Below, one piece after another: positions 10,674-23,456 of a stretch of 64,000 bases of DNA. A program made the position numbers and the translations under genes. The stretch is from positions 10,691 to 74,690 of the forward strand of contig JBHLNT010000008.1 in the NCBI GenBank assembly GCA_048941265.1. Direction: 5' to 3'. The notes beneath the pieces are model-generated. The model ran no database searches, was not told the DNA's origin, and saw only the letters and a list, made by a program, of their open reading frames with translations. How positions within the stretch are numbered: position 1 is the first letter of the stretch; every line of letters starts with the position of its first letter. Origin of the DNA: Promethearchaeota archaeon (GTDB lineage Archaea; Asgardarchaeota; Lokiarchaeia; Sigyniarchaeales; SOKP01).

Positions 10674-11453
10674 ACGGCTAAGAGTTGTATTTTTAAAATA
10701 ATCATGGGTGGTGCGTCGAACTCTGGTAAAACGACTTTTATAAATGGCACATACTTTCCTTTTAATGATGAGGAATTCTTTCACATAGGTGTTTCTTTTA
10801 AATTAATAGATTGCCTCGTTAACAATGAGGATTCCTATCTTCTCCAATTATGGGACTTTAAAGTTATGGCGCAATTCAAGTGTTTATATCCAAGTTTCTG
10901 TAGGGGAGCCAAAGGAGCTCTTATTTGTTTTGATGTATCAGATAAAAAATCCTTCGAGGAACTACATTATTGGATAAAAACAATAAGACAAGTGGCTGGA
11001 AAAATCCCAATTATCTTGATTGGCACCAAGAATGATTTAAAAAGAGTAGTTACTGACCGAGAGATAAATAAAATTATTAAAATTTACCAATTAGATGGGA
11101 TTTTTTATACTTCAAAAGATAATTATAATCGCGAAACTATTTTTAAAAATTTAATAAAAAAATTGGATAAAATTTCTGTCAAGCAATTCGCTATATTCTT
11201 ACCAGAATATGATAAGAAATTCAAAAATTTTATCGATTTTTTCTCATTCTGCCCCGTGTGCAAGCGTAAATTACACTTTAATTATTTAAAAAAGTTTTTT
11301 TATAGCAGAAATGAAGAATCAATAAGATTAAAAGATTCATTATTATATTTGATTGATGAGTCAAATGATTTCGATGATATGTATCATTATAATATTGAAT
11401 TTGGAATACCATGCTGTAAATGTTATGAACAACTTTTTGGAGTAAACATTTAA
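10674..11453 (+). CDS. Degenerate Rab-like GTPase with C-terminal Zn-binding domain (paralog 1; probable ACG start)
   Basis: GASNSGKT, LQLWD, FCRGAKGALICFDVS, GTKND; tail CPVC...GIPCCKC. Confidence 0.8.
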   Translation, partial: TAKSCIFKIIMGGASNSGKTTFINGTYFPFNDEEFFHIGVSFKLIDCLVNNEDSYLLQLWDFKVMAQFKCLYPSFCRGAKGALICFDVSDKKSFEELHYWIKTIRQVAGKIPIILIGTKNDLKRVVTDREINKIIKIYQLDGIFYTSKDNYNRETIFKNLIKKLDKISVKQFAIFLPEYDKKFKNFIDFFSFCPVCKRKLHFNYLKKFFYSRNEESIRLKDSLLYLIDESNDFDDMYHYNIEFGIPCCKCYEQLFGVNI

Positions 11454-11609
11454 AAAAATTCTTTTTGCTTCATACTATAAAGAATTATCAAATGCTTTAC
11501 TCGAAAATTAATTATGATTAGATAAAACATCAAAACATTTTTTAATAAGTATTATTATGTTTAGGTTGAGGTAAATATTTTTCAGGCTCTTGAGGGTAGT
11601 TTTTATATA

Positions 11610-12410
11610 ATGACTAGAACGTATAAATTAAAAATGATAATCGGAGGGGCTGATGGCTCTGGTAAAACTTCATTTTTAGATGGAAAAGCTTCTATCAATC
11701 TAGAATTCAATAATTTAGGTGTTTCATTTAGACCAATTGAATGTATTGTAAATAACGGAGATTCATATCAATTTATTTGTTGGGATCCTAATGTAAAGGA
11801 AAGATATCGTTTTCTTTTTCCAGTATTTTGCAGAGGTGCCTCATGTGCTATTTTATGTTTTGATGTGTCAGATCATAAGACTTTTGAAGAATTAAACTTT
11901 TGGATTAAAACAGTAAGAAAGAACGGGATAATTAATACTTATAAAATACCGATTGTTTTAGTAGGAACTAAAAGCGACTTAAATATACGTGAAGTTAGTG
12001 ATGAGGAAGTTTATAGTCTAATTGACCAATTTGATTTAGATGGAATTTTTTACACATCCATTTATGATAAAGATCTCAAACAGAAAAAGGAGACGATTTT
12101 TAAGATTTTGATTGAAAAGATCGAGCCCTATTATCAAATTGAAGATTTTTCAATTTTCATTCCAAGAGAAGATGATAAATTTAAAGAATTTTTGCAGCAC
12201 TTTTCAATTTGCCCAATCTGTGGAAACCAGAACCACTACGACGCCCTCAAAAAGTTTTATTATAGTAGAGAGCCAAGTCTGATAAACTTAAAAGAAAAAT
12301 TATTAGATCTCATTGAAGAGTCAAAAGATTTTGGTGATACCTATTACAATGAGATTAATGTTGGAATTCCCTGCTGTAAATGTTTTGAAATGTATTTCGA
12401 AAATAAATAG
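11610..12410 (+). CDS. Degenerate Rab-like GTPase with C-terminal Zn-binding domain (paralog 2)
   Basis: GADGSGKT, FICWD, FCRGASCAILCFDVS, GTKSD; tail CPIC...GIPCCKC. Confidence 0.85.
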   Translation: MTRTYKLKMIIGGADGSGKTSFLDGKASINLEFNNLGVSFRPIECIVNNGDSYQFICWDPNVKERYRFLFPVFCRGASCAILCFDVSDHKTFEELNFWIKTVRKNGIINTYKIPIVLVGTKSDLNIREVSDEEVYSLIDQFDLDGIFYTSIYDKDLKQKKETIFKILIEKIEPYYQIEDFSIFIPREDDKFKEFLQHFSICPICGNQNHYDALKKFYYSREPSLINLKEKLLDLIEESKDFGDTYYNEINVGIPCCKCFEMYFENK

Positions 12411-18349: not shown

Positions 18350-19558
18350 TCATAATTTTTTAGCATTATTCAGCTTATTCTGAGGTTTTTCTGAGATTTC
18401 AATCTCTTCCATTTCTTTTACTTTTTTAAAGAATTTCACGGGTTTTGACTCGTCAAACGGCGTGTCGCACACCCAGCACAAGTTTTCTAAATTGCTTAAT
18501 GTTCGTGCACAATTTTCGCAATATAAAGTGTCGCATTCAGGGCAAATATATATATTAAATCGAGCTACTTTATTTTTACAAACTAAGCAAATTTTCTTTT
18601 CTTTAGAAATTGAAACTTCTTCTTCAGTCATTTTTTCAGGTTTTGTGAAAACTCCCCGAATTCCAATGTTGGTTTGACTATCTTGACTTTTTTCACGTTT
18701 TATCCATCTAATTAAAAAAAAACACTCAAGAAAGTAAAAAATGAGATATATAAATGAACCTAAGACATATTCAATAGTTTTTACAACAATAACATTATAA
18801 ATAGTAGAAAACAAAACGCAAACGATTAATGTGAGAATAAATAAATACCAATACTTGATATCACGTGCAAAGAATTCGGGATTGAATACTGTTGGAGCCA
18901 TACATAAAAATATTCCAAAAATACATAAAATGGGAAAAATTAATATTGGCGTGTTTTCTAATCGCATTACTACTGGATTTATATAAATTATAAAGAATCC
19001 TATAAAAAAAGTACCTAAAATAATGAAAGATGTAGCCGCTCTCAGTTCCTTTAGAGACCTTTTCATGAGCGTAAAAAGGGTATGCAAATAATACAATCCC
19101 ATTATTGTAAATGTGTAAGCAAAAAGTTCATAGATTGCTAATTCATAGGGTAATAGAATAATCAATGAGATAATTGCTACGCATAAAATCGGTGCAAGAT
19201 GTATTTTTTTTTTAAGGATTTTCTCATAAGTATAAAAATAATAGATATATGCTGCCCAATAAGAGATATACGCACCTTTAATTAACCACATATAAAATAA
19301 TGAGGGATTCTCAAAATTTCCCCAATAAATATGTCCAATATACTTCCCTTCTAAATAAAAAAAGCTAGAATTTATTAAAATTAAGTAAATTGTGATAAAT
19401 ATAAATAAAAAAGCATACCCATTGTTAATAGACTTTTCAGCGGGATTCTCCTTTCTCTTAGCTAACGCAAAATATTGGAGAGCTGTAATGAACGAAAGAA
19501 TAGTCGCTATACCAATTAAATAAACATCAAAAACACTAAAAATGATAACATTTCCTAT
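18350..19558 (-). CDS. Multi-pass membrane protein with C-terminal 8-Cys RING-like Zn finger (probable ATA start)
   Basis: Frame open 89 codons upstream of ATG 19291 with two more TM helices; tail CLVC-x11-CPEC-x4-CENC-x10-CWVC. Confidence 0.75.
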   Translation of the reverse strand: MGNVIIFSVFDVYLIGIATILSFITALQYFALAKRKENPAEKSINNGYAFLFIFITIYLILINSSFFYLEGKYIGHIYWGNFENPSLFYMWLIKGAYISYWAAYIYYFYTYEKILKKKIHLAPILCVAIISLIILLPYELAIYELFAYTFTIMGLYYLHTLFTLMKRSLKELRAATSFIILGTFFIGFFIIYINPVVMRLENTPILIFPILCIFGIFLCMAPTVFNPEFFARDIKYWYLFILTLIVCVLFSTIYNVIVVKTIEYVLGSFIYLIFYFLECFFLIRWIKREKSQDSQTNIGIRGVFTKPEKMTEEEVSISKEKKICLVCKNKVARFNIYICPECDTLYCENCARTLSNLENLCWVCDTPFDESKPVKFFKKVKEMEEIEISEKPQNKLNNAKKL

Positions 19559-19755
19559 TTAAATTCACCTTTTCTGATCAATTAAAGCTAGTTCCAAATA
19601 ATCTCTTTTTATCAAAAAGTAATCATCCATATTCGCCTAGTTCAACTAACGTGAATCTACTACTAATACGTGCCTAATTTTACTATTTCTCCCTTACTTT
19701 ATAAATTTTTTACTTTTTTTGACTATCAATCCATCAATTTATTCATTTCTTTAAA

Positions 19756-20418
19756 CTATTTTCTTCCTTTTTTCATAATAATCTTCATAGCCTTTATATA
19801 CACAGGCGTCGGGATTATTTCTATGTTTTGAATGAAGTTAATCGAGAAAGGTCGATCACATCGAGAACAAAGTCTCGAGCTTTTTAACCAACTTCTAAAC
19901 TCATCAGCGTGTGCTGGGTGTCCACAGTGAGGACAAATAACAATTCCTCTTTTCTCATCTGCAGGAAGTTTTGGTAATTGAAAACAAAATATACATTTGA
20001 AATCTTCCTTATAAAGAATTGTACCTCTTGGTCTTAACTTATTTAGACTATATGTCTTTTTTTTAGCAGCTGAGTTTCCAGTAGCATAAGTTCTATGAAT
20101 TGACGCTGAATTCGACGTTGTTTGACTGTATGTTTTTTGAGTGCTTCTAGTCCTTGTATAGTTCATAGGATTAGTATTAGAGCGTATGGTGGTGCGTGAG
20201 ATAGTGCGGGATGTTGTATGATTTACAGTTCGTGTAGGAGTTCGTCTAATAGTATGAGATGTTGTACGATTTACAGTTCCTGTAGGAGTTCGTCTGGTAG
20301 TGTGAGATGTTGTACGATTTATTGTCCCTCTAGGAGAACGTGTATTGGTGCGATAAGTTGTAGTCTGTGGTTTTGAAAATAAATTAGCTAGCTTAGCAAA
20401 CCATCTCTTTTTAGCCAA
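19756..20418 (-). CDS. RING-like Zn-finger protein with Thr/Arg-rich repetitive N-terminus
   Basis: CIFC-x16-CPHCGHPAH-ADEFRSWL-x5-CSRC. Confidence 0.75.
   Translation of the reverse strand: MAKKRWFAKLANLFSKPQTTTYRTNTRSPRGTINRTTSHTTRRTPTGTVNRTTSHTIRRTPTRTVNHTTSRTISRTTIRSNTNPMNYTRTRSTQKTYSQTTSNSASIHRTYATGNSAAKKKTYSLNKLRPRGTILYKEDFKCIFCFQLPKLPADEKRGIVICPHCGHPAHADEFRSWLKSSRLCSRCDRPFSINFIQNIEIIPTPVYIKAMKIIMKKGRK
20201..20344. repeat. Three tandem 48-bp imperfect repeats (16-aa unit RRTPTGTVNRTTSHTI) inside the RING gene
   Basis: Copies at 20201-20248, 20249-20296 and 20297-20344. Confidence 0.9.
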
Positions 20419-20458
20419 TTTTACACACCACTATTTTTAATTATTTAAAATATAATAT

Positions 20459-20494
20459 AAAAAAAAAAAAATTAAGGGAAGGCATAAAGCCTTC
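20459..20494 (-). terminator. Hairpin plus long T tract after the Ubl gene
   Basis: Minus strand GAAGGC-TTTAT-GCCTTC followed by about 13 T. Confidence 0.65.
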
Positions 20495-20498
20495 ATTT

Positions 20499-20846
20499 TT
20501 AACCTGCGGTACTAGCAGGGATTAAGAGGACTTCGTCTCCATTAGATACACTATAATTGTTAAGGGGCATTCCATCATCCATAGTCACTCCACCCGAGGA
20601 AAGGTGAAAATCAGCTGGATTTAAACCAAAAATATTTCCAATGGTTCGCTTAATATCATTTACGGCAATGCCGTCATTAACAGTTAACTTCTGCTTTTTC
20701 TCACCAGGTCCAATCGTAGATGTGAAATAGAGTGCAATATTTCTCCCTCCTGCTGTGGGAGTCTTGCCAGCTGGAGTTTTTGATCTTGGTACTGGGACTT
20801 CAATATCCTCTGCTAAATCCTCATCAAATTCATCTTTAAAGCTCAT
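20499..20846 (-). CDS. Ubiquitin-like (beta-grasp) protein with disordered N-terminal tail and single C-terminal Gly
   Basis: KLTV...DIKRTI...F...GG..M.D...L.NY.V.NGDEVLLIPASTAG*; SD GGAGTGA before ATG 20846. Confidence 0.8.
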   Translation of the reverse strand: MSFKDEFDEDLAEDIEVPVPRSKTPAGKTPTAGGRNIALYFTSTIGPGEKKQKLTVNDGIAVNDIKRTIGNIFGLNPADFHLSSGGVTMDDGMPLNNYSVSNGDEVLLIPASTAG

Positions 20847-21109
20847 AATTATCACTCCTTTTATTTGTTTTCTTATGATTGTTTTACTTAATTAAATGAT
20901 ACTGGTGGGATTATTTGAATGAATTAGGAATAAATGTGAAGAGTTTTATTATTCAAAAAAAAGAGAAATTGAAACAATCAAAGTTTCTTAAATAACAATA
21001 CTATAAATTGAGTGAACGAATAATAAATCTTATAGGTACAATATTTTATCTTAGAAAGAAATAAGCTTGATAAAAACAGAGCTATTTAATGTGAGCAAAA
21101 AATTCCATT

Positions 21110-21781
21110 ATGAACGCTTCGGATAATGCTGAAAATGTAGTTTTAGGAATAATGAGAGAGTATTTGTCAAGGAAGCCTTTCTTTTCGATGAAAGATATAG
21201 TGGAATTTGTAAATAACCGGGTTAGAAATATCCCTGATATAAATAAGAATAGAATCGAACTCATTACTAAATCCTTTATCAAGAATAGAATAATAATTCC
21301 AGGAACTAAGTTAATGAAAAAGGATATTGTTAATAATCCAACAAGAAATGAAATTTATAAATACATAAAACAAAATCCTGCTAAAAATATCAATGAAATT
21401 ATGAAAGTGCATAATTTAGGGAGTAATTTGGCATTGTGGCATCTTTCTGCGTTGGAAAAATTTCAATTCATAAGGTCTAAAAAAATTAGGAATCAATGTG
21501 TATTTTTTAAATTTGAATCAGATCCGAAATTTGATCATTTATACTATTATATGGCAAATGATATTGTCCAGTCTATTATTAATCTCATGAAGAATGATAG
21601 GCCGCTCAAGATCACAGAAATAGCTGACGGCCTTAAAAAAAATCATAATACTATAAAGAAATACTTGGAAATTTTAACCAATCTGAAATTAGTAGAAATT
21701 GAAAAAGAAAAATCAAGAGATTTATATAAATTAAATAATGAGAGGTACTTAAAAGCAGTAAAATTAGTGCGTAGAGGTTAA
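21110..21781 (+). CDS. Multi-winged-helix transcriptional regulator
   Basis: RNEIYKYIKQNP...WHLSALEKF and ITEIADGLKKNHNTIKKYLEIL HTH motifs. Confidence 0.8.
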   Translation: MNASDNAENVVLGIMREYLSRKPFFSMKDIVEFVNNRVRNIPDINKNRIELITKSFIKNRIIIPGTKLMKKDIVNNPTRNEIYKYIKQNPAKNINEIMKVHNLGSNLALWHLSALEKFQFIRSKKIRNQCVFFKFESDPKFDHLYYYMANDIVQSIINLMKNDRPLKITEIADGLKKNHNTIKKYLEILTNLKLVEIEKEKSRDLYKLNNERYLKAVKLVRRG

Positions 21782-21865
21782 ATTTAATTTACTTCATATT
21801 TAATCCTATTGAATTTTTATTGAATAAAATGAATATAATAATCGTGAGAAAATGATGATAAAATT

Positions 21866-22693
21866 ATGACTTCAAATACATCAAAAAATAAAAAACTAAG
21901 AATTGTGGTACTATTAGCTCAATGTGCTGCTTTTATACTATTCTATCTCATTTTCTTCTTTGGAAATCCTCTTTTCTTTCTTATATTGGTTATAGGGAGT
22001 GTTGTAGTTCTATCCACCGGTACAATTTATACCGTTATACATCAAGAAAGCATGGATGATAGGATGACTGGGAAAAAACAATTCGCATCTAAAGTAAAGG
22101 CGCTTGAAAAGAGAAAAAAGCTACTAAAAGAGAAAGAAACGACTGATATTATTGAAGATTATATAGCTGAAATGCCTTTTATCCGGGAATATGTTGATTC
22201 AGATAAGTCTTATGAAGAGATGTCTTTAATTGAGAATTTTATTTTTACAGAGCTCAGTTCTAAAGAATTGGCTAAAATTAATCGTTTAGGATTAGCAGAT
22301 ATTGAGAAAAAACAGTTCATTAAAGAATTACTTTATTATACTCAGGAAGAAAGGAGTAATTTAATTGATAGCATGATTGAGAACCTTTATAGACCTGATG
22401 AAGAAGTCATATATAAGCCTCCAATGACTTATGTTGAACAGACAAAAACTATTCGTGTTTATGCAATCTCATTAATAGAAGCAGGGGAGAAAAAGAAAAC
22501 AATAAACATAGAATCTACAGAATTTGTAAATATAGTTAAGGATCAGTTGGCGCTTATCTTTGAGTACGATTTGGAAGATTTTCTATTGTCTACAGGGGGT
22601 ATAATCATGAACGAAAACGCCCTAATAAAAGATTATAATATTGAAGATAGGGATGAAATTGTTTTGATTCCTTCAAGAATATCTAAAAAATAA
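21866..22693 (+). CDS. 2-TM membrane protein with C-terminal ubiquitin-like domain lacking a terminal Gly
   Basis: Two N-terminal TM helices; last ~80 aa align without gaps to the Ubl at 20499-20846 (26/80 identities by hand). Confidence 0.8.
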   Translation: MTSNTSKNKKLRIVVLLAQCAAFILFYLIFFFGNPLFFLILVIGSVVVLSTGTIYTVIHQESMDDRMTGKKQFASKVKALEKRKKLLKEKETTDIIEDYIAEMPFIREYVDSDKSYEEMSLIENFIFTELSSKELAKINRLGLADIEKKQFIKELLYYTQEERSNLIDSMIENLYRPDEEVIYKPPMTYVEQTKTIRVYAISLIEAGEKKKTINIESTEFVNIVKDQLALIFEYDLEDFLLSTGGIIMNENALIKDYNIEDRDEIVLIPSRISKK

Positions 22694-22880
22694 AATTATG
22701 TAGAATTTACTTCAAATATATTTTTTTCTTCAAAAATCCAATTTTCCTTTTGTAAACATTTAAAATTATCTTTTTTTATTAGTAATGAAAAGTAATTATA
22801 CTAAAAATACAAGGAAGATATTATTTTAAACTTAAAAATCAAGTAAATTCATCAAGTAAAAAATCTTAAAAGGGGATATT

Positions 22881-23456
22881 ATGAGCGAGGATGAGAGAGG
22901 ATTAGTTTATAAAATAACTGTAATTGGTGATGGTGCTGTTGGTAAAACTTCCTTAATAAAAAAGTTTACTAAGGGAGAATTCAATGAACAATATATAATG
23001 ACAATGGGTGCCCAATTCACGCAATATCAAACTCAAGTCGAAGGAAACCCCCTAGAATTAGTTTTTTGGGACATTGCTGGACAGGAGTCATTTGCTCAAC
23101 TAAGACCGAATTTCTATCAAGGTAGTAGTGCTGCGATTATTGTATTTTCCCATGAGAATAACGAAAAAGGCGAAAAGAGTTTTCAAAACATCACAAAATG
23201 GCTTAATGATGTTAAAAGAAACTGCGGAAGGCTCCCGATAATGTTATTTGGAAACAAGATAGATTTAGTCACAAATATCGATACTATAGTAAAGAATAAA
23301 GAAAATCCAAAGTCAAACTATAACGTAGATATCTTAATGAAAGATTATAACTTTTTAGGGTATTATCTGACAAGCGCATTATCAGGGCAAGGTGTTAATC
23401 AGGCATTTAACATATTAGCCAATAAATTATATCAAATTTACAAAAATTTTGCTTAA
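22881..23456 (+). CDS. Rab-like small GTPase
   Basis: GDGAVGKTS, T, WDIAGQE, GNKID, TSAL: all G boxes intact. Confidence 0.95.
   Translation: MSEDERGLVYKITVIGDGAVGKTSLIKKFTKGEFNEQYIMTMGAQFTQYQTQVEGNPLELVFWDIAGQESFAQLRPNFYQGSSAAIIVFSHENNEKGEKSFQNITKWLNDVKRNCGRLPIMLFGNKIDLVTNIDTIVKNKENPKSNYNVDILMKDYNFLGYYLTSALSGQGVNQAFNILANKLYQIYKNFA

Follow-up and report, generated by a model that had tools for sequence, protein, structure and literature searches.

A probable accessory half of a Lokiarchaeal Ala-Gly ubiquitin-like conjugation cluster, separated from its enzymes

The closest described relatives of the genes discussed here are the operon of Caldiarchaeum subterraneum, which encodes ubiquitin, E1-like, E2-like, small RING and Rpn11 proteins, and the clusters reported from Asgard archaea (PMC5654768, PMC6043591). 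The same set of components is found on contig C327 of the genome analyzed here and in its sister genera. That genome belongs to a Promethearchaeota archaeon of the Lokiarchaeia, and the stretch under study, which we call the window, is a 64,000-nucleotide segment of another of its contigs (JBHLNT010000008.1, here C341). Six open reading frames (ORFs) between 18350 and 23456, lettered A to F from left to right, had been read in an initial annotation as one membrane-centered modifier system, and all six were found at the coordinates and with the features given there. Genes B to E (19756-22693) are a real module, composed of a RING-like protein (B), a free ubiquitin-like (Ubl) modifier (C), a winged-helix-turn-helix (wHTH) protein (D) and a membrane-anchored Ubl protein (E), and we conclude that they probably constitute the accessory half of a Lokiarchaeal ‘Ala-Gly’ Ubl conjugation cluster that has been separated from its enzymes, with D and E as a regulator pair. 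The proposed module of six thus has a conserved core of four, and A and F are chance, non-conserved neighbors.

Two features connect this system to Caldiarchaeum. First, some of the modifiers here carry a propeptide, and trimming of pro-ubiquitin is described there (PMC5654768, PMC6043591). Second, the E2 contacts in the complex model presented below involve the same elements that were mutated in PMC5654768, namely loops 4 and 7 of the E2 and the Ile and Trp of the finger. Other features differ from that operon. The modifier here ends in Ala-Gly instead of Gly-Gly and has a 40-residue N-terminal extension. The ligase is a multi-transmembrane (multi-TM) protein or, in the window, a soluble derivative of one, and its C4-H-D-C2 finger goes undetected by RING models. 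Moreover, the cluster adds a wHTH protein and a membrane-anchored Ubl, and the portion in the window lacks the enzymes. The words ‘transmembrane’ and ‘winged’ have zero occurrences in the main text and two supplement files of PMC5654768. More broadly, the membrane RING, the TM-Ubl, the wHTH partner and the tail-domain cassette discussed below are not described in the accessible portions of the literature searched, including PMC5654768, bioRxiv 10.1101/2023.07.25.550441, PMC11188069 and PMC13328587; preprint supplements and the asCOG tables may bear on this point. The conjugation cascade itself is of a known kind. To our knowledge, the Asgard ubiquitin cascades that are known and have been reconstituted are soluble E1/E2/RING systems only.

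Division of the cluster between two loci

Profile searches returned no ThiF, UQ_con or JAB match on contig C341, so a contiguous operon is missing there, as the initial annotation had remarked in seeing no E1, E2 or JAB nearby. Its expectation that the enzymes are encoded elsewhere also holds. The 5-kb contig C327 carries, all in the same direction, genes for a Ubl, an E1, an E2 and a JAB protease, followed by one for a TM protein bearing a RING-like finger (TM-RING). This Ubl (117 residues) is 70% identical to C and also ends in STAG; the E1 (410 residues) is of the ThiF type; the E2 (175 residues) matches Pfam UQ_con at 85.6 and 86.2 bits in two scans (cut-off 27) and has the invariant residues H82-P83-N84 and Cys99; the JAB/MPN protein has 275 residues; and the multi-TM TM-RING combines a Thr/Arg/Pro-rich linker with a Cys/His finger that matches B. 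Judged by sequence, the enzymes that serve C are probably those of C327.

To compare gene order, we searched E against 61 related genomes; the counts that follow come from sampled relatives, which are not mutually independent. Full-length E occurs in 12 of the 61, in four genera (g1, to which the window belongs, g2, g6 and g11) of one family. All 12 have a free Ubl gene divergently upstream and a D ortholog between this gene and E, which establishes the linkage that the initial annotation had suggested looking for by a neighborhood survey, and the same Ubl/D junction lies on two end-cut contigs, one from G004 and one from G018, a member of a fifth genus. In g2, g6 and g11, all eight genomes share one order: nucleotidyltransferase and coiled-coil genes, a Ubl gene (Ubl_b), the TM-Ubl and wHTH genes, and then a second Ubl gene (Ubl_a) followed by E1, E2, JAB and TM-RING, with wHTH and TM-Ubl transcribed divergently from the Ubl-E1-E2-JAB-TM-RING run. 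In g1, by contrast, this cluster is separated into two loci. Six genomes have an enzyme locus, in which a coiled-coil gene precedes Ubl-E1-E2-JAB-TM-RING and a gene for a Zn-ribbon/coiled-coil/Ubl fusion (ZnCC-Ubl) lies farther on, and four (G000, G001, G003 and G009) have a window-type locus, with genes for the soluble RING-like protein and a Ubl on one side and for the wHTH protein and TM-Ubl on the other.

A tree of 36 Ubl domains, which rests on a short alignment of 101 columns and should be read cautiously, places the two g1 Ubl groups as sisters (support 99/91) inside the Ubl_a type. This relationship indicates a genus-specific duplication, after which the window-type locus lost E1, E2 and JAB as well as the membrane part of its RING-like protein. 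Instead of a separate system, as first proposed, synteny and the Ubl tree thus reveal a part of the canonical cluster that was relocated and, in part, duplicated. The membrane-centered character that was also proposed is borne out by the TM-RING of the operon and the TM-anchored Ubl of the module.

A third relative of C, encoded on contig C29 (locus L015, 6602-7456, minus strand), is a 284-residue ZnCC-Ubl fusion whose Ubl domain, 51% identical to C, is followed by ...STAG-YFF; this protein may represent either a large precursor or a tag with an extended N-terminus. In G001 and G003, its orthologs follow the TM-RING gene at a distance of ~1.6 kb, and their position in G009 and G006 is similar. 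The operon E2 of G006 is broken into two ORFs (L051, 8740-9296), and the E2 of a second ubiquitin cluster, termed Ub-GG and described below, is shortened and separated from its E1 by ~2.8 kb (L080, 1223-4465), possibly reflecting decay or insertions in that species. Long coiled-coil and nucleotidyltransferase-fold genes are conserved beside the sister-genus cluster (L014, 3-590; L041, 7455-9532), and in g1 the coiled-coil and operon Ubl genes are divergently oriented.

The modifier and the RING-like protein

C (20499-20855, minus strand, 118 residues) consists of an acidic/SKTP N-terminal extension, a Ubl domain and a C-terminal Ala-Gly (...IPASTAG). The C-terminal motif LLIPAS[T/I/V]AG is invariant in all 21 free Ubls aligned, and seven of these have an extra 2-6 residues after the Gly, as expected for a tag trimmed by a JAB protease. 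When compared with the PDB, a profile of this 21-member family matches single-domain ubiquitin chains with E-values of 1.9e-5 to 1e-2 and polyubiquitin chains at much lower E-values. On the evidence of its sequence, C is probably a true modifier of the ubiquitin family. E ends in a stretch of ~90 residues that is paralogous to C, as initially noticed (BLASTP 31% identity, E-value 1e-15; hhalign 99.2%, E-value 7e-20, 91 columns). E itself ends ...LIPSRISKK, without a Gly, and its orthologs end LIPS[RK].... Hence, the exposable C-terminal Gly of conjugatable modifiers is present in C and absent from E. An early comparison with UFM1 does not hold, as the window proteins have no Ufm1-family hit among their Pfam matches at E-values ≤0.1, and the C327 E2 passes UQ_con and carries His-Pro-Asn. 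A likeness to endoplasmic-reticulum-associated degradation (ERAD), which also pairs a TM-RING with a TM protein bearing a Ubl domain, would be an analogy only.

B (19756-20418, minus strand, 220 residues), a candidate E3, has a basic N-terminus, a Thr/Arg/Ser-rich linker and a C-terminal finger of the form C-x2-C-x16-C-x2-C-x4-H-x-D-x4-W-x6-C-x2-C. Hydropathy analysis finds no hydrophobic or TM segment, in keeping with the initial description of a soluble RING-like protein. B is paralogous to the C-terminal half of the operon TM-RING, and its finger is 70% identical to that of the C327 protein. Across 16 aligned B and TM-RING sequences, C142, C145, C162, C165, H170, D172, W177, C184 and C187 are invariant; His167 of B is replaced by Tyr in other genera. 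The N-terminus of B is both basic and hydrophobic (Lys-Lys-Arg-Trp-Phe-Ala-Lys-Leu...), is similar in G001 and G003 and lacks the Trp-Phe in G009. It may form an amphipathic membrane-binding helix in place of the lost TM region.

We modeled the C327 E2 in complex with the C-terminal 95-residue segment of B and two Zn, alongside three controls. The complex scored 0.65, compared with 0.14 for the best of the three controls; in a benchmark, that mark was met by 116 of 157 solved complexes and by 2 of 215 mismatched pairs. Contacts agreed between runs by at least 96%, and the partner had a predicted local distance difference test (pLDDT) value of 86. On the E2 side, the modeled contacts fall on residues 3-10, 68-69 and 108-118 (helix 1, loop 4 and loop 7). 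On the finger side, they involve Ile-Phe-Cys-Phe after the first Cys, the Trp, and Leu-Cys-Ser-Arg in the last Cys-x-x-Cys loop. The predicted interface would therefore have the canonical E2-RING geometry, formed through an Ile/Trp surface, and a RING/E2 complex of the kind whose prediction was initially suggested is favored by the model.

The D/E pair and its tail domain

D (21110-21781, plus strand) is a basic tandem winged-helix protein (43 Lys plus Arg versus 24 Asp plus Glu) from a large Lokiarchaeal paralog family with matches in all 61 genomes. It passes Pfam HTH_5 (29.8 bits versus a cut-off of 22) and HTH_24 (27.7 versus 21.9), and its best PDB relatives, Sso10a-2 (1.5e-3) and an Lrs14-like protein, bind DNA. 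D thus appears to be a protein of the winged-helix DNA-binding type and is a candidate regulator. The divergent region between C and D (20856-21109, 254 bp), presumed to contain promoters or an operator, has 34 invariant columns in an alignment of 12 genomes from four genera.

E (21866-22693, plus strand, 275 residues) is a membrane-anchored, non-conjugatable Ubl-domain protein with three parts: one 50-residue hydrophobic stretch found by hydropathy and read as a hairpin (residues 10-59; 21893-22042), a middle domain (residues ~90-187; 22133-22426) and the Ubl domain (residues ~188-273). The E family is restricted to Loki-type metagenome-assembled genomes (102 matches, all at E-values ≤8e-55, named ‘hypothetical’ or once ‘ubiquitin-like’), and the ESM Atlas held nothing beyond E’s own cluster. 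The middle domain has a wider distribution. A word-based search with residues 88-187 found no longer proteins, but an exhaustive HMMER search, using 12 E orthologs and one homologous segment of a G008 surface protein (L035) as the query, did find them, yielding 105 representative proteins at E-values ≤1e-3. In most, the domain is C-terminal and lies 100-300 residues behind a single TM segment, with a signal-like segment at the N-terminus. Among 30 longer members scanned, 24 have extracellular-type domains (NosD/beta-helix in 17, LamG in two, FG-GAP in two, and a propeller, an Ig-like domain and DUF6772 in one each) and six gave no match. In 31 of the 105, a finger of the type found in A (CxxH...CxxC...CxxC...CWxC) precedes the domain by ~60 residues. 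Compared with the PDB, the tail-domain profile gave no significant match (best E-value 0.18). By homology, then, the middle domain of E is the domain that forms the cytoplasmic tail in many surface proteins of Lokiarchaea, a new assignment.

The tail domain and the D family also keep company. We collected 33 non-E ORFs that match the E middle domain, seven of which are cut off by a contig end and so could not be assessed. In 24 of the 26 assessable cases, a D-family gene lies within 2 kb and is usually the next gene; of the remaining two, one has a D-family gene 5.6 kb away in the same cluster and the other has none in the stretch examined. The window’s own genome contains another tail-domain/D-family pair on contig C285, and in G025 a tail domain is directly followed by a D-family module within one polypeptide in all four long ORFs examined. 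This gene order and these fusions speak for a physical partnership of tail domain and D-family protein. The TM-Ubl/wHTH pair and the surface-protein tail/wHTH pair are the same cassette, and E is the member of the tail-domain family that lacks an outer domain and has a Ubl at its C-terminus.

The D family has further variants. Short members (141-165 residues, corresponding to the N-terminal two thirds of D; L065, 3294-3791; L066, 3168-3593; L055, 754-1212) are encoded with a full-length D paralog on one side and a large surface protein carrying a tail domain on the other, making three-gene units. In G060 and G057, from other families of the class, a D-family module forms the N-terminus of ~720-residue proteins (L073, 2231-4390; L074, 1396-3549), which have no tail-domain match and thus a different fusion architecture.

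We propose the following sequence of events. Where necessary, the JAB protease would first process C; the C327 E1 would then activate C at the terminal Gly and hand it over to Cys99 of the C327 E2. Next, either B or TM-RING would deliver it to targets, docking onto helix 1 and loops 4 and 7 of the E2 via the finger Ile and Trp. Meanwhile, E, unable to be conjugated, would hold its Ubl domain and its ‘receptor-tail’ domain at the cytoplasmic face of the membrane. The tail domain could serve as the docking partner of the D-family winged-helix protein, so that E holds D at the membrane, and the Ubl domain could tie the pair to the Ubl machinery, providing feedback on the divergent Ubl promoter. 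Because E is non-conjugatable and membrane-held and its tail domain would dock D, the pair most likely acts as a membrane-tethered regulator that links the state of the Ubl system to how the divergent Ubl genes are expressed.

Several familiar systems, which we compare here from general knowledge, offer partial parallels. Hrd1 with Usa1/HERP, and TMUB1, likewise combine a multi-TM RING-type ligase with a membrane protein bearing a non-conjugatable cytoplasmic Ubl, a resemblance of architecture only; the middle domain of E differs, and there is no evidence here of retrotranslocation or a Cdc48 linkage. In MUB/UBL3, as in E, a ubiquitin-fold domain is held at the membrane and is not conjugated, but MUB/UBL3 is lipid-anchored at its C-terminus, whereas a hydrophobic hairpin near the N-terminus anchors E, which also contains the additional tail domain. 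Finally, anti-sigma/sigma pairs of the RsgI/SigI type also comprise many two-gene paralogous units in which a membrane protein with a variable outer and a conserved inner domain accompanies a small partner of the DNA-binding type. These families are unrelated to D and E, however, E has no outer domain, and binding and release would here be conjectural; moreover, we know of no sigma factors in archaea.

A more ambitious interpretation, which we offer tentatively and consider possible but doubtful, is that D and E are the ubiquitin-dedicated pair of a kinase-free Lokiarchaeal family of transmembrane signaling systems. In each pair, a cognate winged-helix factor would accompany a surface protein whose cytoplasmic tail domain often has a RING-like finger in front of it. 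Ubl conjugation at the membrane might control the release or destruction of this factor, E, with its tail domain permanently fused to a Ubl, might act as a built-in ‘tagged tail’ to recruit the machinery or report to it, and the arrangement could be an archaeal forerunner of ubiquitin-dependent membrane signaling and of the RING-plus-Ubl scaffolds of ERAD.

There are several wider implications. First, two separate ubiquitin clusters of this lineage encode putative membrane-embedded RING-like ligases, and the lineage also has a non-conjugatable, membrane-anchored Ubl. Second, domain sharing, gene order and fusion tie these proteins to the cytoplasmic tails of large surface proteins and to the large winged-helix family; if this link is functional, ubiquitin-type tagging would already have been coupled to membrane proteins and to communication from the surface to the cytoplasm in relatives of the eukaryotic ancestor. 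Finally, the split in the genus provides a natural test, as the modifier and the RING-like protein that it leaves behind, the latter soluble and easy to express, must work with enzymes from elsewhere.

Alternative explanations and flanking genes

A number of observations weigh against our interpretation of B to E as a detached accessory half with a regulator pair. The finger has just seven invariant Cys/His residues, and the eighth ligand would be Asp172 of B. Pfam RING-type matches of A and B all fall under their cut-offs (for B, the best is zf-RING_16 at 16.3 bits versus 27.4), and a finger profile searched against the PDB found no RING, the best hit being IFT144/WDR19 with an E-value of 0.05. 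The Pfam ubiquitin family (PF00240) is likewise matched below its cut-off of 25.4 by both C (17.6 bits) and E (23.2 bits), and the beta-grasp fold of the Ubls and the cross-brace fold of the finger are putative. Because E2-RING is a much-solved type of pair, the favorable complex model shows likeness to such complexes, not binding by the B copy. For use of the C327 E1 and E2 in trans, which we infer, a plain, non-rigorous alignment of the regions upstream of C and the C327 Ubl yielded no common promoter motif. Binding of D to the E tail domain or to DNA is suggested by gene order, fusions and family membership. Finally, G005 and G006 (98% and 99% complete) have the enzyme locus and no full-length E detectable with this query, which indicates that the D/E pair is dispensable.

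The principal competing explanation gives D and E a structural role as adaptors for the membrane ligase, in the style of Usa1/HERP with Hrd1, and makes D a protein-binding winged helix that does not bind DNA. The Ubl and tail domains of E would then scaffold TM-RING and the E2, consistent with the position of D/E next to Ubl-E1-E2-JAB-TM-RING in the sister genera and with the RING-like finger upstream of so many tail domains. Permanent fusion of D-family modules to membrane proteins in G025 would also be awkward for a freely diffusing transcription factor. However, D passes two HTH models, is basic and has DNA-binding relatives in the PDB, and the window locus keeps D and E even though its RING-like protein has no membrane domain. 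On balance, we regard an adaptor role as unlikely.

The original proposal, in which all six genes form one membrane-centered modifier system apart from the canonical ubiquitin locus, draws on their adjacency. In addition, A-family genes sit beside Ub-GG in all six assessable genomes and, in G009 and G006, at a distance of ~4.5 kb from the canonical operon, and small GTPase genes flank the Ub-GG cluster on contig C241 as well. Synteny largely refutes this proposal, which we judge very improbable. None of the 11 related loci contains a match to A, and in G001 and G003 the gene directly abutting B encodes alanyl-tRNA synthetase. The Rab-like gene F adjoins E in one of the 11 (G001), and a PNPOx gene directly follows E in G003 and G009. 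Moreover, the genome has 87 Ras-family and 16 A-family matches, A appears to begin with an ATA codon, and C and B are paralogs of canonical operon genes. The caution in the initial annotation that the outer genes may be chance neighbors was therefore well placed.

The window locus could instead be a decaying remnant of the duplication, in which C and B are redundant, drifting and without a function of their own. Its lack of E1, E2 and JAB, the missing TM region of B and the absence of a D/E locus, with this query, from some species of the genus would fit such decay. Nevertheless, four species keep intact copies of C, B, D and E, with identities of 81-92%, 57-78%, 75-86% and 61-81%, respectively, and the finger ligands and the C-terminal Ala-Gly are all invariant, making a functionless remnant very improbable. 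That C is a sulfur carrier of the MoaD/ThiS/SAMP type and not a protein tag is extremely improbable and was rejected on gene context: a C-terminal Gly and a ThiF-family E1 are common to sulfur-carrier systems, but a UQ_con E2, a JAB protease and a RING-like protein are constant members of the orthologous cluster, its E1 is the long 410-residue form, and no sulfur-transfer genes were seen in it.

A (18350-19291 as listed, minus strand) has ~7 hydrophobic segments by hydropathy and an eight-Cys tail, whose spacing we take to resemble that of a C4C4 RING. Its open frame extends to 19558 and encodes 402 residues, not 313, and alignment with a 398-residue paralog begins at residue 4. This frame opens (19556-19558) with an ATA codon that directly follows a TAA and has GGTGA 8 nt before it; the corresponding residue of the paralog is Met, and the next in-frame ATG gives the 313-residue form, without two of the hydrophobic segments. 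The letters around the ATA are identical in contigs from runs of two studies. Besides A, the genome has 15 A-family matches. On C241 (L016, 2583-8472), two A-family genes lie directly upstream of, and in the same direction as, a gene for an 87-residue ubiquitin ending in Gly-Gly, and this set is convergent with genes for a second E2, a short E1 (292 residues) and a JAB protein (162 residues). The A-family/Ub-GG adjacency in all six assessable relatives, with three others cut by contig ends, indicates that the family of A supplies the membrane finger protein to a different ubiquitin cluster; three genomes from another family gave a match to the E2 of this cluster only. The C241 cluster also encodes a 309-residue P-loop/Roc-like protein and has Ras-like genes on either side.

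An Rfam scan of the window gave no matches. F (22881-23456, plus strand) is a Ras/Rab-like small GTPase (Pfam Ras, 3e-39, 134.5 bits versus a cut-off of 21.6), and two more Ras-family matches, in ORFs of 259 and 281 residues, lie ~7 kb to the left on the same contig (window positions 10695-12113).

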